Assembly: GCA_003556225.1 (NCBI GenBank)
Contig: PWRN01000020.1
Location: forward strand, 2,436 to 66,435
Origin: Syntrophomonadaceae bacterium
GTDB lineage: Bacteria; Bacillota; Dethiobacteria; DTU022; UBA8154
Direction of reading: 5' to 3'
DNA: 64,000 bases
The notes under the pieces are model-generated. The model had not been told where the DNA came from. It saw only the letters and a list, made by a program, of their open reading frames with translations, and ran no database searches. A program made the position numbers and the translations under genes. Numbering within the stretch: position 1 is the stretch's first letter; every line of letters begins with the position of its first letter. Shown here piece after piece: positions 15,513-23,638 of the stretch.

Positions 15513-16280
15513 ATGCTTTGCTCTAAAGACAATGGCATGTTGGAATTGGTAAACTACCGGTTGACACTTTCCTACGAGGGTACAGCGTATAGCGGTTTTC
15601 AAATCCAGAAAAATGCTTTGACCATCCAGGAAGTACTGGAATCATGCCTGAAAAAACTCTTTAATCAACCCATCCGGGTAACCGCTGCCGGTAGAACGGA
15701 TGCCGGCGCCCATGCACGGGGTCAGGTCGTTCATTACTTTGCATCACCGCGTATCCCCGTTGAACGTCTACCCGATGCTTTAAACGGCTTGCTGCCCAAA
15801 GACATCGTCGTCACCGCTTCTTGCCTGGAAAAGAATTCGTTCGATGCACGGAAAAATGCCCTGGGGAAACGCTATCGCTATACCGTTGACAACGGAAAAT
15901 TTCCAGATGTCTTCTGGAGGCGCTATGCCTGGCATCTTCCCGTTAGCCTGGACCTGGAAGAAATGCGATCAGCAGCAGCTTCCCTGGTAGGAGAACACGA
16001 CTTTAAAGGTTTTCAGGCGACTGGTGGTTCTGTAGAGACCACGGTGCGGCGCTTAGATGAAGTATCAATCAAGCGAGAGGGCCAGCTTATCCATTTTTAC
16101 CTGGAAGGAAGCGGTTTTCTTTATAAAATGGTCCGCAATATCGTGGGCACCCTGGTGGATGTCGGGCGGGCCTGCAAGGGGCCCGGGGAAGTACCAGACA
16201 TTATCGAAAGCAGGAACCGGAAAAAGGCTGGTGTAACGGCTCCTGCCTGGGGGCTTTGCCTGGAAGAAGTTTTTTATTGA
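15513..16280 (+). CDS. truA: tRNA pseudouridine(38-40) synthase
   Basis: AGRTDAGAHA, GFLYKMVR; start approximate. Confidence 0.95.
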   Translation: MLCSKDNGMLELVNYRLTLSYEGTAYSGFQIQKNALTIQEVLESCLKKLFNQPIRVTAAGRTDAGAHARGQVVHYFASPRIPVERLPDALNGLLPKDIVVTASCLEKNSFDARKNALGKRYRYTVDNGKFPDVFWRRYAWHLPVSLDLEEMRSAAASLVGEHDFKGFQATGGSVETTVRRLDEVSIKREGQLIHFYLEGSGFLYKMVRNIVGTLVDVGRACKGPGEVPDIIESRNRKKAGVTAPAWGLCLEEVFY

Positions 16281-16297
16281 TCGAAGAAGGGGTCTTC

Positions 16298-16326
16298 TTG
16301 ACGTTGTTCCCCGAATGGTTTAAAAT
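16298..16326 (+). promoter_or_regulatory. sigma-A-type promoter of rplM-rpsI
   Basis: TTGACG-N17-TAAAAT. Confidence 0.65.
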
Positions 16327-16469
16327 ATTCCCTGTGACATCCAAAACGGACAATGCCCCTGGAGATGCAGGGATATGAAGGTCTAATGATTCAAGTCAGA
16401 AAGGAGGTGTGCAGAGTCTGCAATGATGACCCGGGAGATCATGCCCGGGAGCTAGCAGGCCTAATGACG

Positions 16470-16931
16470 ATGCGCACGACATACATGGCGAAAGAAAAAG
16501 ACATTGAACGTAAATGGTACGTGATTGACGCGGCGGGGCAACCGCTGGGAAGGCTGGCCAGCGAAATTGCTCGCCTGCTGCGAGGTAAGCATAAAACAAC
16601 ATACACGCCCCACGTAGACACCGGAGATTACATTGTGGTTGTGAACGCGGATAAAGTGATGCTGACCGGGAAGAAAGCACGACAAAAGATGTATTACCGC
16701 CATTCTGGTTATCCCGGCGGGATCAAGGGTATTCCTTTTGAAGAAATGATGGCAAGGTACCCGGAACGCGTGATTCATCTGGCAGTCCGCCGGATGCTTC
16801 CTTCCAACCGACTCGGTAGGGCCATGCTGAAAAAAATCAAAATCTACACAGGCCCGGAACACCCTCATCAGGCTCAAAAACCTGAAGCCCGGGTATTTAA
16901 CCCTAAAAGAGTTGCCGGGAAAACCGAATAG
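16470..16931 (+). CDS. rplM: 50S ribosomal protein L13
   Basis: [28 protein letters not shown]. Confidence 0.97.
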
Positions 16932-16982
16932 GAGCAGCAAACTAAGGAAATGCAAGAGAAATATAGGAAAGGAGGAAACAGT

Positions 16983-17375
16983 TTGGCTCAGGTACAATTT
17001 TTTGGCACGGGAAGACGAAAAAAATCCATTGCCCGGGTCCGCTTGATCCCCGGAGAAGGTAAAATTACCATTAACAACAAGGATATAGACGATTATTTTG
17101 GACTGGAAACCCTGAAGGTCGACTTGCGACGGCCCCTGGAACTCACCGGCACGAGGGGCAAATTTGATGTGATCGCCAAGGTTGAAGGCGGTGGTGTCAG
17201 CGGCCAGGTCGGCGCCATTCGGCATGGTATTGCGCGGGCACTGCAGTTGGCGGAAGGCGAATATCGGCCGGTTCTGAAAAAAGAAGGGCTGCTGACCCGG
17301 GATTCGCGCATGACAGAGCGGAAAAAGTACGGTCTGAAAAAAGCGCGACGTGCACCCCAATTCTCCAAGAGGTAA
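16983..17375 (+). CDS. rpsI: 30S ribosomal protein S9
   Basis: [25 protein letters not shown]. Confidence 0.98.
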
Positions 17376-17470
17376 TCTTTACCCGCGGTCGTTGACATAC
17401 ACATTGTGGATGCATCATTGCAGAGTAGCGGTTAACAAGTCCGGCCTGTAGATAGAGGTGATTGCGATTG

Positions 17471-17502
17471 AAGCTGGCAGGATAGACTGGTCAGCTTTTT
17501 TT
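17471..17502 (+). terminator. probable terminator after rpsI
   Basis: AAGCTGGCAG..CTGGTCAGCTT followed by T tract. Confidence 0.6.
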
Positions 17503-17585
17503 GCATGTACCTGGAAACGGAGTCGGAGCCAAGGAATTTGCTCAAGAATGCGGTTATCAAGGGGGATTTCGCCAAATCTTAGTAG

Positions 17586-17614
17586 TTGTCAAACCCGAAG
17601 AATTCTATTATAAT
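17586..17614 (+). promoter_or_regulatory. sigma-A-type promoter of the GGGP synthase-like gene
   Basis: TTGTCA-N17-TATAAT. Confidence 0.6.
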
Positions 17615-17630
17615 AAATGAAAAAGGAATT

Positions 17631-18386
17631 ATGAACCCGGAGATGGATAAAATGAGCGTGGCGCAGTACTTAAAGGATAAGCTGAAGCTGGGAACCGTCC
17701 ATATTACCCTGGTGGATCCCTTAAAGCAATCCGCAGAAGCTGCAGGTCGCCTGGCCCAAACAGCACAGGAGGTTGGCAGCGATCTCATTCTGGTTGCGGG
17801 ATTGTCTGGACTCTCACAGACGAACCTCCTGGAGACGGCCCGGCTGATCAAGGAAAAATCCACCATCCCGGTTGTTTATACACCATCTGGCGCTGAGGCG
17901 CTCTGCTTCTCTTTTGACGCCGTGTTTTTCCCCTGCTTTCTTAATTGCAATAACGCCCGCTTTGTCTGCGGCGGCCAATCCCAAGCGTCGGTTATTCTCA
18001 AACGCATGGAAATTGAAACCATTTCCGTCGGTTACCTGATGATTGAACCGGGTATGAAAATCGGTGACGCGAAAGATGTGAATCTGATCACGCGAGATAA
18101 CTACTGGCAAGCTTCCAGTTTTGCCGTAGCTGCTGAGCTTTTCGGGATGCAGTATGTTTATCTGGAAGCGGGTACAAGCGCCGCGCAACCGATCCCGGCC
18201 GGGATGATTCGCGCGATCAAAAAAGAGTTATCCGTGCCCATGATCGTGGGCGGTGGCATCCGCACCGCGGTTGATGCGCGACGGGTGCGGCAGGCTGGAG
18301 CCGACATGGTGGTTACGGGAACCATCATTGAAAATGCAGGTTACCGGGAGCGCCTGCGCTCTATCTTGAGCGCGTTGAAAGACTAA
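17631..18386 (+). CDS. geranylgeranylglyceryl phosphate synthase family protein (group II, archaeal-like, divergent)
   Basis: HITLVDP, GYLMIEPG, YLEAG, IVGGGIR, GADMVVTGT motifs of the GGGPS TIM barrel; start 17631 or 17652. Confidence 0.88.
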   Translation: MNPEMDKMSVAQYLKDKLKLGTVHITLVDPLKQSAEAAGRLAQTAQEVGSDLILVAGLSGLSQTNLLETARLIKEKSTIPVVYTPSGAEALCFSFDAVFFPCFLNCNNARFVCGGQSQASVILKRMEIETISVGYLMIEPGMKIGDAKDVNLITRDNYWQASSFAVAAELFGMQYVYLEAGTSAAQPIPAGMIRAIKKELSVPMIVGGGIRTAVDARRVRQAGADMVVTGTIIENAGYRERLRSILSALKD

Positions 18387-18534
18387 AGATGCTGGCCAGC
18401 ACACGGCATTAATGGACTTACCCGATAGACCGCTTAAGCCCCGGCCCGCCAGGAGGTGCCGGGATATCATTTTAGCCGCACGGGTCTTAATCAAACGGAT
18501 CATCATTCCTGCAGAGAAAGGAGACCGGCTATTG

Positions 18535-19047
18535 ATGAAGAAATGGATTCTGCTCGCCATAGCCCTTTGTTTCATGACCCTGGTAACCGGTTGTGCTGTG
18601 GTTGAAGAACAAGAAGTTGTGGCAGAAATGCGACCCGACCTCTATTGGCAAAAAATCTGGATCGTGGAAGAGCGACAGATCAATATCGAAGTTGAGGGAG
18701 AAGACCCGGAAACGTTGGTGAAAATGGATGTATACGGACGGGTTCGCTATGAAGGGGAAGACCCTGTAAACAGGGTTCGCTTGATTATCAGGAGTCCATT
18801 AACCTTTGATTTCATCGAAGATCATCGTGCCATGAATTATGGGACTGTCTACCCGGGCGACGTGTTGGAATACAACTTGATCCAAAACTATCCCGAGTGG
18901 CAGGAAAGGGTGCCCATCGGGGTCTATAAATATCACATTATTGACGATTTCCGAGACAACGCGTATATCAATATCGCCTGGGAGCAGGACGATGAAAGTC
19001 ACAGTCAGCAGTTTTTCGACTGGAAACCAAAGAGATACGATAAGTAG
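18535..19047 (+). CDS. hypothetical lipoprotein
   Basis: MKKWILLAIALCFMTLVTGC lipobox; SD AAGGAG. Confidence 0.75.
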   Translation: MKKWILLAIALCFMTLVTGCAVVEEQEVVAEMRPDLYWQKIWIVEERQINIEVEGEDPETLVKMDVYGRVRYEGEDPVNRVRLIIRSPLTFDFIEDHRAMNYGTVYPGDVLEYNLIQNYPEWQERVPIGVYKYHIIDDFRDNAYINIAWEQDDESHSQQFFDWKPKRYDK

Positions 19048-19139
19048 AAGCGTGAGCAAAGAGTAAAGAAGGAAAGAAAAACGAATCTTGGAGGCGACGC
19101 CGTGCATGTGCGGCTGTTACCGTCAGATACTTGGTCACG

Positions 19140-19179
19140 AGGCGGGCTGCTTTCTAAACGGAAAAAGCGCCCGCTTTTT
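19140..19179. terminator. hairpin between convergent genes
   Basis: GGCGGGC..GCCCGCTTTTT. Confidence 0.5.
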
Positions 19180-19209
19180 GCGAGGTTTTTTCCGGTTCAG
19201 CCAGGCTAA

Positions 19210-19737
19210 CTAGAGGTAAATGATCATGCCAGCCACGGCGCCCAGGCCGATGAGTAAAAGCGGGTGTATGTTGGTCAGAAAAATCGCTGCGAATCCAGCC
19301 AGGGCGATCAGCACGCTGAATAGATCGATAAATGCGCTTTGCGCGATCACAAATGCGGCCAACCCAATCAACGCGATCACGGCAGGCTGAATACCCTCCA
19401 GGCTTCGTTGGAAATGTAAATTCGTGTAGAAATGCAAAAATAACTTTGCCGCAGGAATGATTAAGAGCAGAGATGGGAAAATGACACCCAGGGTGGCGAC
19501 CGCAGCCCCGGTGAAGCCGGCTACCTGGTAGCCCACAAAAGTGGCGGCATTCACGGCAATGACTCCCGGGGTCATTTCAGCCACGGCGATGATGTTCACG
19601 AATTCAACAGGTTTTAACCACCCATGGATCCGGACGATTTCGTGTTCCATCAGGGCAATCATGGCGTAACCACCGCCGAACCCGAAAAGGCCGATCTTAA
19701 AAAAAGATACATAGAGTTGAACCAGCAGCCAGAACAT
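19210..19737 (-). CDS. short-chain chromate transporter (CHR family)
   Basis: FFKIGLFGFGGGYAM, AEMTPG. Confidence 0.9.
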   Translation of the reverse strand: MFWLLVQLYVSFFKIGLFGFGGGYAMIALMEHEIVRIHGWLKPVEFVNIIAVAEMTPGVIAVNAATFVGYQVAGFTGAAVATLGVIFPSLLLIIPAAKLFLHFYTNLHFQRSLEGIQPAVIALIGLAAFVIAQSAFIDLFSVLIALAGFAAIFLTNIHPLLLIGLGAVAGMIIYL

Positions 19738-19759
19738 TTGTGGGCTACTCCTCCCTGGC

Positions 19760-20341
19760 TCACAAATTAAAACGGGGTCGGATGAAACCGGTTACCCCTC
19801 CGGCGATGATCACCAGGATGGGGTGCACACCGTAGAACAGCAGCACGGCTAGAAAAATGCCAAAGATCAGCAGCAGATCCAACCGGGTGAAGACTCGCCT
19901 GCCGAGCTTGATAGCAGCGGCCGCGATGAGCGCGACAATGATCGGTTTAATGCCTTGAAAGGCGGCCTGCACAACCGGGAGATGCTGGTATTCCCACAAG
20001 ACGGCGGCTACAAGCAGGATAATGAGAAAAGAAGGTAGAATTGTGCCCAGCAGGCCCAGCAAGGCTCCCCGCATCCCCATCAAGCGGTAACCGGTCATCA
20101 GGGAAAAATTAACAGAGATGGGGCCCGGGATAGACTGGGCAACAGCGAGGTTATCAACGAAGGTTTTTTCGTCGATCCATTTTTTCCTCTCAATAATTTC
20201 TGTTTTAATCAAGGGGATCATGGCGTAACCTCCCCCGATGGTGAAGGCGCCAATTTTAAAAAATAGCAAAAAAAAGGGCCAGGCGTGCGGTTGATGGAAA
20301 AGCTGGCTTTGTTTTTCAGGCGGCGGGCTTGGTGGGTTCAA
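19760..20341 (-). CDS. short-chain chromate transporter (CHR family)
   Basis: FFKIGAFTIGGGYAM, AQSIPGP; TTG start after GGAGG. Confidence 0.9.
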   Translation of the reverse strand: MNPPSPPPEKQSQLFHQPHAWPFFLLFFKIGAFTIGGGYAMIPLIKTEIIERKKWIDEKTFVDNLAVAQSIPGPISVNFSLMTGYRLMGMRGALLGLLGTILPSFLIILLVAAVLWEYQHLPVVQAAFQGIKPIIVALIAAAAIKLGRRVFTRLDLLLIFGIFLAVLLFYGVHPILVIIAGGVTGFIRPRFNL

Positions 20342-20562
20342 CGCTTTTTCTCCTCCGTTGAGCTGCTGCTTTATTTTATCACTGCCCCTTTTGATTTGCA
20401 AACAGCCCAGTTTTGCGAAACCCTAGCAGGGAAGATGCTGCGGCATCTCGAAATACTTGCCATGGTGCTCCCCGTGAAGCTGCAGACCTCCGTGAATCGG
20501 TAAGTTGTTCCGCGACAGTTAAGACTAAAGAGAAATTTTGTTTATCTTGAGTAAACCGCTAG

Positions 20563-20670
20563 CCATAGGGGACGGTTCCCTCGTCTGTTACAGGGAGACA
20601 CCTCTAAAAACCAGAAGAATGTCCCCGAAGCCTCCGCTTCGCTTCGGTAACGATGAAACCGTCCCCATGG
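20563..20670. repeat. REP-like extragenic palindromic element
   Basis: CCATAGGGGACGGTTCC ... GAAACCGTCCCCATGG inverted repeat with inner CCGAAGC/GCTTCGG hairpin. Confidence 0.55.
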
Positions 20671-20724
20671 TTCCGCTATTTGCAACGTTTCGCTGTAGGG
20701 TTAAAGGAAGGAGATTACGCAATC

Positions 20725-21666
20725 GTGTCCTCGTATCAAACCCGTGCTGGCGACCGCTTTTGGGAGGGTTTTTGGCAGCTCGCAGACCCCAAGATCTGGA
20801 TCGCTTCCACTGTACCCATGGCCCTGGCCGCTGCCCTTGCTTACGGCCTGGAAGGGAAGTTCAATTTCTTTTGGTTCGCGCTGACCCTGTTGGGGATCTA
20901 CCTCATTGAAATCGGGAAAAATGCCATTAATGAATATGTTGACTACCAGTCGGGTGTCGACCGGTTTGTGACCCCTGACAAGCGAACTCCCTTCAGCGGG
21001 GGTAAAAAGGCCATTGTTCAGGGTAAACTAAACCTGCAGCAGACGGCCTGGATTGCGCTCGTAACCATGCTGGGCGGTTGCCTGGTTGGCCTGGTCATTG
21101 TCCTCTTTCGGGAGCCCGGGGTGTTTTGGATCGGGCTGGCAGGTGCAGCCATGGCCACCTTTTACAGCTTGCCCCCTTTTAAATTTTCTTACCGGGGCCT
21201 GGGAGAATTAGCCGTGGGTATCACATTTGGACCCTTGATCGTTTCCGGCACATACCTGGTGCAGACAGGCGCGATAAATCTCCCGGTGATCCTGGCCTCT
21301 TTTCCCCTGGGATTCTTGATCGCCAATGTGCTGTGGATAAACCAGTATCCCGACGTGGAAGCCGATGCCATGGGGGAAAAATTAAACCTGGTGGTGCGCC
21401 TGGGTAAGAGAAAAAGTGTTCAGGTCTACAAAGGGCTTTTTGCGGCCGCGTATCTCTCGGTGTTGGTTCTTATTTTTGTCACCGGCAATATCCTTTGGGC
21501 GCTGGCTTTTCTCAGCATCCCCTTAGCCGTTCGTGGAATGCGCGTGGCTTCCCGGCATTACGACCATGTCCCCCGCCTGGTGGAGGCAAACCTTAAAACC
21601 ATCCAGGTGTACCAGGTTACCGGAGTTGGCATGGTCTTGGCGGCTTTGCTTCCCCGGTTATGTTGA
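20725..21666 (+). CDS. UbiA-superfamily prenyltransferase, MenA-like
   Basis: NEYVDYQSGVD and NQYPDVEAD..GEKLNLVVRLG Asp-rich motifs; YRGLGE; multi-TM; GTG start after AAGGAG (ORF is open from 20653). Confidence 0.85.
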   Translation: MSSYQTRAGDRFWEGFWQLADPKIWIASTVPMALAAALAYGLEGKFNFFWFALTLLGIYLIEIGKNAINEYVDYQSGVDRFVTPDKRTPFSGGKKAIVQGKLNLQQTAWIALVTMLGGCLVGLVIVLFREPGVFWIGLAGAAMATFYSLPPFKFSYRGLGELAVGITFGPLIVSGTYLVQTGAINLPVILASFPLGFLIANVLWINQYPDVEADAMGEKLNLVVRLGKRKSVQVYKGLFAAAYLSVLVLIFVTGNILWALAFLSIPLAVRGMRVASRHYDHVPRLVEANLKTIQVYQVTGVGMVLAALLPRLC

Positions 21667-21847
21667 TCCAAATTTTTGTTCTGCTGGCGTAAATGATGTT
21701 GAGAGGGAGATAATAGCTAGAAAACAGAGCCTGATCGTTTTTGATAGAGCTTTTCAGGGTTCGACTTTATGCAGGGATTCATGTAAATTATTTTCAATAC
21801 GCAGTCGGCTGCGAGTTTTGGTGACCGAGAGGAGTTGTGCCGTGTTC

Positions 21848-23638
21848 ATGATCCGCTTTGCAGCAAAGTATGAACGAATAAAGGCCGGTGTCCCGTTGTT
21901 ATTGCTGCTATTTTTTTTCTTTTCCGCCCTCCTTCCGGGCTGCTCATCCGAGGTGCCGGGTCCTGGCGAAACGGATGCGTCAAAACAGGAGCCTGAACAA
22001 AACGGTTCGCTGGAAAACCCGGGAAACCTTTGTGAGGCATCTGAAGCAGCGCCAGAACGATCAGCAGAAGAAGAGGAAGAGGCCCGCCGCTTAGAAGAAG
22101 AGGCCCTCCGGGAAGAAGAGGAGCGAAGGCGCCAGGCCCTGGAAGCGGAACGTCGGGAAGCCCTGGGCAAGTATTATGTTCCACTTCCCGGAGAGAAAAG
22201 GGATGTCACCGCGGTAAAGGCTCGCGGCCTCTATGTCACCGGCCACAGCGTTGCCCATTCCCGCTATGATACCATCCTGGAGATGGTGGAATCGACGGAA
22301 TTGAATGCCCTGGTCATTGATGTAAAGGATGATCACGGACATGTTACATATAACAGCGAGCTGGAAATCGTGAAGGAGTTAAACTCCAACCGGTCTCATC
22401 CCATCAAGGATCTAAAAGCCGTGCTGGACGATCTCCATGAGCGGGGCATCTATACGATCGCCCGGGTAGTAGTTTTTAAAGATCCGTACCTGGCCGAAAG
22501 AAGGCCCGATTGGTCTATTACGCGCAATGAGGGTGGTCTCTGGCGCGATCGTAAAGGGGTGGCCTGGGTTGATCCGTATGAGCAAAATGTGTGGGATTAT
22601 ACCGTAGCCGTTTCCCGGGAAGCGGCTTTAGCGGGTTTCCAGGAAATCCAGTTTGATTATGTCCGTTTCCCCGAAAATGCCCACCGGGTAGACGTGGAAG
22701 CCTATTACCCGGCCCAAAATGAACTGGAAAAAGATGAATTAATCCGCGAGTTTTTGATCTATGCCGGTGAAAAATTACAGGACTATGACGTGTTAATTTC
22801 GGCCGACGTATTTGGTGTGATTTCCACCTCCTGGGGGGACAGCGACCGCATTGGGCAGACCTGGGAAGCGGTTTCGCCGTACGTGGATGTGATCTGTCCC
22901 ATGATTTATCCCAGCCATTATGGCCCGGGATACTTCGGCTACAGTGTTCCCGATGCCCACCCGGCAGGAACGGTCCGCAGGGCTCTTCTCGACGCGATCA
23001 AGCGCAATGCCCCACTCCAGTACCCCGCCGTGATTCGCCCCTGGCTCCAGAGTTTCACAGCTTCCTGGATTCGTGGCCACATCCGCTACGGCCCGGCCCA
23101 GATCCGGGAGCAGATCGAAGCAGCCCTGGCGCTGGGGATCGACGAGTACTTGCTCTGGAATGCAGGAAATAATTACCAACCTGCGGCTTTGCTGACCGAA
23201 GAGGAAGCCGCAGCGCTGGCGGAAGAATTGAACCAGTCTCGCTTCCGCAAAGGCCTGGATGCCATCGGCAATACCCCGGAGGAGGCCGTGGAATTGTTTT
23301 TGGAAGCGGTGCGCAAGAGGGACTGGCGGGAGGCCTTTTCCCTTCATGTCACCGGCCCCGAGCTGCATTATCTGAATTACTCGGAGTGGAAGGATTCCTG
23401 GCACAATCGCCCTGCAGCGTACCAGGTAGAACCCCTCGAGGACCGGGAGAAGGCCGTGGAAATTCTCCAGGGCACAGGAGAAACGCTGCAGATTAACCTC
23501 TCGGTCCGGCTGGATGGAGGCGAAGATGAATATCACCTCTCCCATGAACGCTGGGAAGTTCGATTGGAAAATAGTATCTGGCGGGTTAAACCCTCGGAAG
23601 CTTTCATTTCCAAGTTAACCCTTGCTGCAGAAGATTGA
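21848..23638 (+). CDS. putative glycoside hydrolase lipoprotein (DUF4015-like TIM barrel)
   Basis: LLPGC lipobox; NALVIDVKDD, IQFDYVRFP, PMIYPSHY, RPWLQSF. Confidence 0.8.
   Translation: MIRFAAKYERIKAGVPLLLLLFFFFSALLPGCSSEVPGPGETDASKQEPEQNGSLENPGNLCEASEAAPERSAEEEEEARRLEEEALREEEERRRQALEAERREALGKYYVPLPGEKRDVTAVKARGLYVTGHSVAHSRYDTILEMVESTELNALVIDVKDDHGHVTYNSELEIVKELNSNRSHPIKDLKAVLDDLHERGIYTIARVVVFKDPYLAERRPDWSITRNEGGLWRDRKGVAWVDPYEQNVWDYTVAVSREAALAGFQEIQFDYVRFPENAHRVDVEAYYPAQNELEKDELIREFLIYAGEKLQDYDVLISADVFGVISTSWGDSDRIGQTWEAVSPYVDVICPMIYPSHYGPGYFGYSVPDAHPAGTVRRALLDAIKRNAPLQYPAVIRPWLQSFTASWIRGHIRYGPAQIREQIEAALALGIDEYLLWNAGNNYQPAALLTEEEAAALAEELNQSRFRKGLDAIGNTPEEAVELFLEAVRKRDWREAFSLHVTGPELHYLNYSEWKDSWHNRPAAYQVEPLEDREKAVEILQGTGETLQINLSVRLDGGEDEYHLSHERWEVRLENSIWRVKPSEAFISKLTLAAED

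Follow-up and report, generated by a model that had tools for sequence, protein, structure and literature searches.

In a 64,000-nucleotide (nt) stretch of a Bacillota genome (contig PWRN01000020.1 of a Syntrophomonadaceae bacterium; we call this whole stretch the window), we found a gene for a group II (archaeal-type) homologue of geranylgeranylglyceryl phosphate (GGGP) synthase, or GGGPS. It does not encode the group I protein PcrB of Bacillales. GGGP synthase sets the backbone stereochemistry of archaeal lipids and forms their ether bond, so copies in bacteria are relevant to the "lipid divide." Within the Bacillota, a whole class, the Dethiobacteria, carries this group II enzyme as a core gene, and we did not find the rest of the archaeal pathway in the genomes we searched. 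In the taxonomic family that the window comes from, residues that are invariant in 79 named archaeal sequences have been rewritten under strong purifying selection. From the sequences, we read the protein as a prenyl-glycerol-phosphate ether synthase that is active and yields a mono-ether product, with substrate contacts that have been rearranged in the window's family; we give this reading a probability of roughly 60%. (Residue numbers are those of P0001, the 251-amino-acid (aa) reading from the ATG at 17631.)

The assignment to group II comes from profiles, matches in the Protein Data Bank (PDB), and structure. (Our trees held no group I outgroup.) The open frame (17586..18386, forward strand) translates to a protein with the motifs HITLVDP, AGLS, TPS, DAVFFPCFLNC, GYLMIEPGM, IGDAK, YLEAGTS, VGGGIR, and VTGT. 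The Pfam profile PF01884 (PcrB) matches at 136 bits (cut-off 23.9) over profile positions 8-223 of 226, far above what chance would give. The NCBIfam equivalog for GGGP synthase (TIGR01769) is passed at 177.6 bits (cut-off 161.55), while NF003197, which describes the group I heptaprenylglyceryl phosphate synthase, reaches 52 bits against a cut-off of 260. (TIGR04146, for the A. fulgidus type, gives 61 bits.) In the PDB, 6jo3, 4mm1, and 6nke match at E = 1e-48 to 1e-45 and the Flavobacterium enzyme (4jej) at 6e-30, as compared to 2e-12 to 4e-10 for group I proteins; Bacillus PcrB (3vzx) is at 2e-12. A reading of the DNA letters by themselves (the sequence-only reading) had already chosen group II over PcrB. 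The motifs it quoted are all in the sequence, and its choice was right.

The structural model agrees with this placement. An AlphaFold2 model from a 100-sequence alignment (pLDDT 89.4, pTM 0.89) has a helix at residues 10-20 and then eight strand-helix units, which is a (beta-alpha)8 barrel with an extra N-terminal helix. In a Foldseek comparison, the template modelling (TM) scores were 0.91-0.95 for the M. thermautotrophicus enzyme (MtGGGPS), 0.92-0.94 for those of T. acidophilum and T. volcanium (TaGGGPS and TvGGGPS), 0.85 for the F. johnsoniae enzyme (FjGGGPS), 0.80 for MoeO5, and 0.76 for PcrB. Also, the beta-alpha8 phosphate loop is described as having a threonine in group II and an asparagine in group I (PMC9385802). 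The window's protein has V228-T-G-T231, and T231 maps by motif to the group II threonine.

The aromatic or histidine residue on helix alpha5' that anchors hexamers is missing: D146 aligns with W141 of 4mm1, and an acidic residue (E or D) stands at this position in 117 of the 120 closest homologues. Published accounts state that dimeric group II enzymes also lack an aromatic anchor and that the aromatic anchor marks hexamers (PMC9385802, PMC7888582). So the missing anchor is compatible with group II, and it does not exclude membership. Because the aromatic anchor is replaced by Asp or Glu, the enzyme is probably a dimer.

The gene is present in nearly all of the relatives we searched. Among 61 genomes of the order, 58 have a GGGPS match (E <= 1e-15), of which 54 are full-length and four are cut by contig ends. 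The three genomes with no match are 69-84% complete, and elsewhere there is one copy per genome. The window's own genome (1.81 Mb, 108 contigs, 90.6% complete) also has a single copy, and we found no second one. In an even sample of 301 genomes from the phylum, nine match at this threshold: eight from the order, counting the window's own, and one of the two that represent a sister family of the same class. The other 291 genomes gave no match. The close homologues are 60-97% identical and come from sources named Dethiobacteria bacterium, Dethiobacter sp., or Bacillota bacterium, and the sister clade contains the homologue from the cultured Dethiobacter alkaliphilus. The stretch is also found nearly whole in metagenomes of soda lakes, salt lakes, and alkaline sediments from several studies.

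We built two quick maximum-likelihood trees, with no outgroup, and computed supports with the Shimodaira-Hasegawa-like approximate likelihood-ratio test (SH-aLRT). The first tree had 99 rows. For the second (65 rows), 13 representatives that were long or had odd composition were removed, the archaeal and order rows were thinned, and three proteins from the Dethiobacter clade were added. The window's family forms a clade (SH-aLRT 98-99), as do the order (99-100) and the order together with the Dethiobacter clade (95-96). The gene tree follows taxonomy, and we take the gene to be a single-copy core gene that was passed down vertically. Vertical descent is also indicated by the conserved gene order (rplM-rpsI and the ChrA neighbours). 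The genes ecfA-ecfA-ecfT-truA-rplM-rpsI lie directly upstream in 8 of 10 context loci from the window's family, and in five of the nine loci from the order's other families rplM-rpsI are no more than 2 kb away. In our view, the gene was acquired once and long ago, before the Dethiobacteria diversified, and not through a recent or stray transfer.

The source was probably an archaeon: the great majority of group II is archaeal, and the other genomes sampled from the phylum gave no match. The nearest relatives outside the clade are 43% identical (in a library clustered at 50% identity). The closest of these belongs to a cluster of Thermoplasmata/Methanomassiliicoccales, and the best 80 loci found with it are all archaeal. 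By similarity, this bears out the sequence-only reading, which was reminded of Thermoplasmata enzymes. The trees do not place a specific donor: the deep branching is a polytomy in the 99-row tree, and in the 65-row tree the Dethiobacteria fall among Thermoplasmatota with supports of only 82-88. In both trees, they lie outside the other clade (7-11 rows), two members of which hit MtGGGPS as well as FjGGGPS when compared with the PDB. The transfer from archaeon to bacterium that had been proposed is thus probable as to its source, but it is ancient and took place before the class arose.

To describe the active site, we compared the protein with 204 group II references, of which 79 are named archaeal sequences and 125 are representatives. 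The comparison also took in 28 further members of the window's family, nine members of other families of the order, and a genome from the Dethiobacter clade. Forty positions are conserved in at least 80% of the references, and the window's protein differs at eight of them. G56, S58, F84, S182, and G183 are invariant in 79/79 archaeal sequences, and the window has A, L, T, T, and S. (These five are kept in 199, 191, 193, 194, and 193 of the 204 references, respectively, or about 187-199 overall.) Three near-invariant motifs thus differ: G-G-S at the end of beta2 is A-G-L, F-P-G at beta3 is T-P-S, and S-G in the beta-alpha6 loop is T-S. Across the 28 family members, position 58 is L in 19 and V, I, or M in three each; position 84 is S in 25, T in two, and A in one; position 183 is S in 14, N in 11, K in two, and G in one; and position 182 mixes L, I, T, P, and V. 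In the AlphaFold2 model, the changed residues lie on the catalytic face: beta2 (52-56) and beta3 (81-84) carry them at their C-terminal ends, and the others are in the beta-alpha6 loop (180-189).

The sequence-only reading had listed these substitutions as one remodelled site. The changes are real, but they are not one event, and they fall into three layers. The first layer is shared at the level of the class or order: A95 to F or L, S182 to N in the other families, D or E in place of the hexamer anchor (position 146), and the missing acidic residue after Asp-Pro. (This last position, 31, is D or E in 94 of 128 representatives, and the acidic residue is missing in all 120 close homologues.) The second layer is specific to the window's family. 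G56, S58, F84, and G183 (and S182) have the canonical residue in 0-1 of the 28 family members and, S182 aside, in 8-9 of the nine members of other families. The third layer, S102C and L103F with P101 and C106 (in PCFLNC), is found only in the window and its congener. Among the 120 closest homologues, 67 have the canonical residue at each of positions 56, 58, 84, and 183, 27 show the full family signature there, and 26 combine the two.

We also examined the residues that carry out catalysis. According to the review of de Kok and Driessen (PMC9385802), the Mg2+-diphosphate is held in MtGGGPS by D25 and perhaps also by E27/E28 and S54; a trio of two Tyr and one Glu places sn-glycerol 1-phosphate (G1P) and polarises it; and three loops bind the phosphate of G1P, namely beta-alpha6 (through S and G), beta-alpha7 (G and G), and beta-alpha8. 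In the alignment to 4mm1, D25 corresponds to D29 and S54 to L58. (The trio and the phosphate loops were mapped by motif, as residue numbers in the review differ from the numbering of the aligned chain.) The window's protein keeps D29, Y135, Y177, E179, G207-G209, and T229-G-T231. In the 28 family members, D29, Y177, GGG, and TGT are kept in all, Y135 in 25, and E179 in 24 (the other four have Asp). The C-terminal phosphate-binding motifs are thus retained, as the sequence-only reading had stated.

The gene shows no sign of decay. By the method of Nei and Gojobori (NG86), dN/dS was 0.024-0.054 in 8 of 12 ortholog pairs; the other four had saturated dS. Between the window and its congener, dN was 0.0165 and dS was 0.399. 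Within the 244-aa frame, none of the orthologues carries an internal stop, and the new states at positions 58 and 84 are themselves conserved in the family. Such a pattern is what one would expect from a functional shift or a compensated rearrangement, and it does not fit relaxation. Overall, we found no clustering with PcrB and no neutral decay, and the gene is present in relatives.

We propose the following mechanism. The protein would belong to the group II GGGPS lineage and be a soluble prenyltransferase with a (beta-alpha)8 barrel, still catalytically active. A Mg2+-bound polyprenyl diphosphate would be held by Asp29 and ionised at the top of the barrel. The glycerol phosphate would be held by the phosphate loops of beta-alpha6, 7, and 8, with its hydroxyl polarised by Glu179 with Tyr135 and Tyr177. 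The polarised hydroxyl would attack C1 of the prenyl chain, which would form the ether bond. In the window's family, the contacts to both substrates would be rearranged: the hydroxyl of Ser58 was lost, and a hydroxyl was gained as Phe84 became Ser or Thr. Similarly, in the beta-alpha6 loop, S-G became a hydrophobic residue followed by S, N, or K. Our hypothesis, based on the model, is that the polar groups moved and were not lost, with the hydroxyl shifting from the end of beta2 to the adjacent end of beta3 and the polar residue of the beta-alpha6 loop shifting by one place. We read this as a retuning of the active site and not as decay.

As to history, the gene would have reached the ancestor of the Dethiobacteria in a single event, with an archaeon as the probable donor, and would have been inherited vertically since then. 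The product is most likely a mono-prenyl glyceryl phosphate. It would be a minor or carrier-type lipid, like PcrB's product in Bacillus, and probably not a bilayer lipid of the archaeol type. A mono-ether is expected since the lineage has no recognisable G1P dehydrogenase, no recognisable CarS, and no general digeranylgeranylglyceryl phosphate (DGGGP) synthase. (By an absence, we mean that a gene was not found in the genomes searched; the window's genome is 90.6% complete, so single absences from it are soft.) For comparison, PcrB's product is reported to act as a carrier lipid in B. subtilis, where it is used by LhaT (PMC12345273).

Several observations weigh against this proposal. First, Tyr135 is Leu or Val in 3 of the 28 family members, as compared to Tyr in 200 of 204 references, which argues that the constraint on the glycerol-phosphate site has changed. 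(These three members, L028, L033, and L036, belong to one genus, g7; at the context loci of this genus, L121 and L124, the gene no longer follows rpsI.) Second, Ser58, a proposed ligand of Mg2+ and diphosphate, is hydrophobic in 28/28 family members. Because the acidic residue after Asp-Pro is gone as well, Asp29 is the sole proposed metal ligand left. Third, the suggested relocation of the hydroxyl draws on the general geometry of barrels and on the secondary structure of the model.

Fourth, we found no source of G1P and no AraM- or EgsA-like enzyme in the genomes searched. The EgsA model was over its cut-off in 0/61 genomes of the order, so no G1P dehydrogenase was found. The three best matches to it in relatives (110-123 bits) proved to be GldA glycerol dehydrogenases, and the six Fe-ADH_2 matches in the window's genome are four generic iron alcohol dehydrogenases, AroB, and PurE. 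The same gap has been described for Ca. Cloacimonetes, whose genomes lack egsA/araM, and the use of sn-glycerol 3-phosphate (G3P) through enzyme promiscuity was suggested (Villanueva et al. 2020, PMC7852524). Fifth, the analogy to the carrier lipid of Bacillus is incomplete because LhaT (DUF1405, PF07187) was found in 0/61 genomes; a control search did find LhaT from B. subtilis. Finally, transcription of the gene cannot be read from contigs of a metatranscriptome library, because they mirror the DNA contigs (they have the same breakpoints as, and similar depths to, the DNA run from the same sample).

Among the alternatives, we take most seriously, while still judging it unlikely, that the chemistry itself has changed, so that the enzyme no longer joins G1P to geranylgeranyl diphosphate and uses another phospho-acceptor (G3P, or a phospho-alcohol or phospho-acid without glycerol), a donor of another length, or both. 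The five archaea-invariant positions are replaced in 27-28 of the 28 family members, four of them are kept in 8-9 of nine members of other families, and all five lie on strand C-termini or in a beta-alpha loop at the catalytic face of the model. The conservation of positions 58 and 84 in their new states and the loss of Tyr135 in three members also favor it. But polar groups that are retained one position away fit compensation equally well, and no change is seen in the catalytic Glu and Tyr or in two of the three phosphate loops. The lack of a G1P dehydrogenase in the 61 genomes might seem to favor another acceptor, but families of the order with canonical residues equally lack this enzyme, so the missing G1P source does not track the remodelling.

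A precedent for a change of acceptor does exist within the protein family. MoeO5, whose acceptor is 3-phosphoglycerate, superposes on the model at TM 0.80. As to the donor, the window's genome has a farnesyl diphosphate synthase and a long-chain-type prenyl diphosphate synthase, which are possible sources. The long-chain-type enzyme occurs in 38 of 61 genomes and would fit a longer donor. We considered whether it goes with the remodelled family and rejected this, as it is not family-specific (19/32 genomes of the window's family vs. 13/19 of the largest other family). A specific form of the changed-chemistry idea is a natural conversion to a new substrate pair in this family of uncultured Dethiobacteria from soda lakes, with a shift of two polar contacts (from Ser58 to Ser/Thr84 and from Ser182 to Ser/Asn/Lys183), which would give an ether synthase that acts on G3P, or on some other phospho-acceptor with a longer prenyl donor. 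We regard this conversion as doubtful.

It is improbable, in our view, that the protein is a canonical GGGP synthase that opens an archaeal-type diether pathway, with the nearby UbiA-family protein (20653-21666) carrying out the second prenylation. This UbiA is the only one in the genome, and UbiA lies within 1-3 kb of GGGPS in four other genomes as well (G005, G018, G024, and G029). Neither menaquinone route was found: MenD was over its cut-off in 0/61 genomes, and PF02621 (MqnA/D-type) had only weak matches (26-36 bits) in 5/61, none of them in the window's genome. (Nor was UbiE/MenG over its cut-off in the window's genome.) Also, the window's genome encodes a flavoprotein of the geranylgeranyl-reductase family on a short contig (G000:C44:863-2029, L165; TIGR02032 at 220 bits, cut-off 158.8). 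This family is patchy in the order, with matches over the cut-off in 12/61 genomes.

However, the window's UbiA resembles MenA and UBIAD1 instead: it scores 135 bits with MenA models and 106 bits with TIGR00751 (cut-off 102), it matches human UBIAD1 in the PDB at 6e-16, and it reaches only 33 bits with a DGGGPS-like model. In four relatives, a MenA-like UbiA sits beside the long-chain synthase, as in quinone operons. The window's UbiA looks like an orphan quinone-type prenyltransferase. Furthermore, while GGGPS is in 58/61 genomes, UbiA of any kind is in 34/61 (25/32 in the window's family, and 7/19 and 0/7 in two others), and a DGGGPS-like UbiA is in 3/61 genomes and in 0/32 from the window's family. 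No CarS was found in the window's genome. The archaeol-type pathway that the sequence-only reading had raised therefore finds no support here.

The three genomes with a DGGGPS-like UbiA belong to another family and may make real diether lipids. Their proteins (G057:C49, at L144/L180; G054:C10, at L143/L181; and G049:C25) score 197-207 bits with NF009523, below its cut-off of 269. In G057, the gene is about 1 kb from a geranylgeranyl-reductase-family gene. The GGGPS orthologues of these genomes are 58-61% identical to the window's, and that of G057 is among the nine canonical sequences.

Last, it is very improbable that the protein is a non-catalytic relic with a ligand-binding or structural role, as the sequence-only reading had allowed: the proposed ligand Ser58 and the acidic residue 31 are lost, the S-G of the phosphate loop is altered, and no partner pathway was found, but Asp29, Tyr177, GGG, and TGT persist in 28/28 family members along with Glu or Asp at 179, Tyr135 is kept in the window's protein, positions 58 and 84 are conserved in their new state, and a dN/dS of 0.02-0.05 indicates constraint, though purifying selection does not show catalysis.

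We next describe the locus (Table 1). The coding sequence is most likely 17652-18386, with the ATG at 17652 as its start, rather than the in-frame ATG at 17631 that gives the 251-aa reading. The shorter protein has the length of 107 of the 120 closest database homologues. Thirty orthologues from related genomes start at the residue that matches M8 of the longer reading, four relatives have a stop codon within the stretch aligned to residues 1-7, and the spacing of the GGAG site fits. The TTG at 17586 cannot be the start codon because it is part of the -35 hexamer itself. The sequence-only reading had given the gene its own promoter. The promoter-like site is there, and an own promoter is plausible because a hairpin with a U-run separates the gene from rpsI (whose stop is at 17375), but the promoter is a consensus match only. 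The 2.4-kb region has three promoter-like sites vs. 1.9 +/- 1.4 in shuffled sequences, so the count alone is ordinary. The hairpin is probably the rplM-rpsI terminator; a simple terminator scan did not list it. A search of 16000-21000 with Rfam gave no match at E <= 0.1, hence no riboswitch or leader was found.

Table 1. Features at the GGGPS locus, in window coordinates.
Feature	Position	Strand	Remarks
Hairpin followed by U-run	17463..17505	+	Folding free energy (dG) -20.9 kcal/mol, z -3.77; 0/200 shuffles as stable
Sigma-70-like promoter, TTGTCA-N17-TATAAT	17586..17614	+	11/12 consensus positions; consensus match only
Putative ribosome-binding site, GGAG	17639..17642	+	9 nt 5' of ATG 17652; read from sequence
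GGGP synthase homologue, group II	17652..18386	+	244 aa plus stop; profile, structure, and homologue-length evidence
Codons of A56-G57-L58	17796..17804	+	C-terminal end of beta2, replacing G-G-S; from alignment to 4mm1 and AlphaFold2 model
Codons of T84-P85-S86	17880..17888	+	End of beta3, replacing F-P-G
Codons of Y177-L-E179-A-G-T182-S183	18159..18179	+	beta6 and beta-alpha6 phosphate loop; consensus YLEAGSG, with S-G replaced by T-S
Small predicted lipoprotein, lipobox LVTGC	18532..19047	+	146 nt downstream of the GGGPS gene; no Pfam match
Split chromate-transporter (ChrA) pair	19210-20401	-	Beside the GGGPS gene
UbiA-family gene, MenA/UBIAD1-like	20653-21666	+	2.3 kb downstream; only UbiA in the genome
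DUF4015 putative glycosyl hydrolase, open reading frame	21533-23638	+	Preceded in frame by a long Glu/Arg/Ala-rich stretch

The neighbor just downstream of the GGGPS gene encodes a small predicted lipoprotein. A gene for it is at this place in 8 of 10 context loci from the window's family, in 0/9 loci from other families, and not in the Dethiobacter-clade locus (L119). In a search of protein clusters, it matched only Bacillota clusters without names. The gap between the two genes has no terminator-like site, and they are possibly co-transcribed. This neighbor is specific to the window's family, and its arrival beside the GGGPS gene coincides with the remodelling of the active site. Given that a lipoprotein gene follows the enzyme, we considered lipoprotein acetylation of the Bacillus type, and rejected it as LhaT was found in none of the 61 genomes searched. 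Further along, the ChrA pair adjoins the GGGPS gene in several genomes of the window's family, in one from another family, and in G160 from the Dethiobacter clade (at L119). This adjacency is conserved across the class; a functional link is not obvious. Because the DUF4015 reading frame and the last part of the UbiA gene overlap, the hydrolase probably starts at a point further downstream than the frame does.

Group II GGGPS was already known from bacteria. In the papers we consulted, it is attributed to the Bacteroidetes and the FCB group (Fibrobacteres, Chlorobi, and Bacteroidetes), with Firmicutes placed in group I (PMC7888582, PMC6431249). The protein from D. alkaliphilus is listed among Firmicutes GGGPS in the supplement of Coleman et al. 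2019 (PMC6431249), while the main text puts Firmicutes in the other paralogue; this accession in a supplementary list is the only printed trace that we found. Public databases already name these proteins automatically. In a search that left aside subscription papers and most supplements, we found no paper that describes group II GGGPS in Dethiobacteria or its remodelling in a family. What seems new is that the gene is a core gene of a whole class of Bacillota and that one family has rewritten its residues.

The remodelled family, its canonical sister families, and a cultured relative form a compact test set for the residues that determine substrate choice. They also open the question of what a stand-alone prenyl-glycerol ether does in bacteria. 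If the enzyme does use a new substrate pair, it would be a natural, datable case in which the gatekeeper for stereochemistry or substrate at the lipid divide was re-specified by about five substitutions, and the canonical enzymes of the order and of D. alkaliphilus would be built-in controls. If it is an ordinary GGGPS, then all that our finding does is add a further lineage to a phenomenon that is already known.

We can compare the window's protein to four known systems. The first are the archaeal group IIa enzymes from T. acidophilum (6JO3), T. volcanium (6NKE), and M. thermautotrophicus (4MM1), with 36-40% identity over the full length, TM scores of 0.91-0.95, and a root-mean-square deviation of 1.6-1.8 A to the model. 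They share the barrel, the Asp on beta1, the Tyr on beta5, the Y-x-E on beta6, and the GGG and V-T-G-T loops. The EPGM segment is shared with Thermoplasmata-type sequences, and the dimeric enzymes from Thermoplasmatales also lack the aromatic anchor. Unlike the archaeal enzymes, the window's protein has A, L, T, T, and S at positions 56, 58, 84, 182, and 183, and its host is a bacterium in which no G1P dehydrogenase, CarS, or DGGGP synthase was found. The group IIb enzymes of FCB bacteria (such as 4JEJ from F. johnsoniae) are also group II proteins in bacteria and, like the window's protein, probably dimers, but they are less similar to it than the archaeal enzymes are (E = 6e-30, TM 0.85). 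FCB genomes usually pair GGGPS with DGGGPS, whereas only 3/61 genomes here have a DGGGPS-like gene. (The separation of the Dethiobacteria from group IIb in our trees is not formal, as the second clade carries no group name.)

The third system is PcrB of Bacillales (group Ib), which has the same fold, belongs to the same superfamily, and is also found in Bacillota. It belongs to a different paralogue group, as the weak match (E = 2e-12, TM 0.76) and the low NF003197 score (52 bits vs. 260) indicate. PcrB is reported to work without a diether pathway and to make a mono-ether carrier product (PMC12345273), which is the functional model that we favor. Bacillus has AraM to supply G1P and LhaT to use the product, and neither was found in the 61 genomes of this Dethiobacteria order. 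The fourth is the homologue from D. alkaliphilus (P0284), which lies in the same class-level clade (SH-aLRT 95-96), is 41% identical to the window's protein, and also has a glutamate at the anchor position. It has the canonical GGS, FPG, and SG motifs, where the window's family has the remodelled set.

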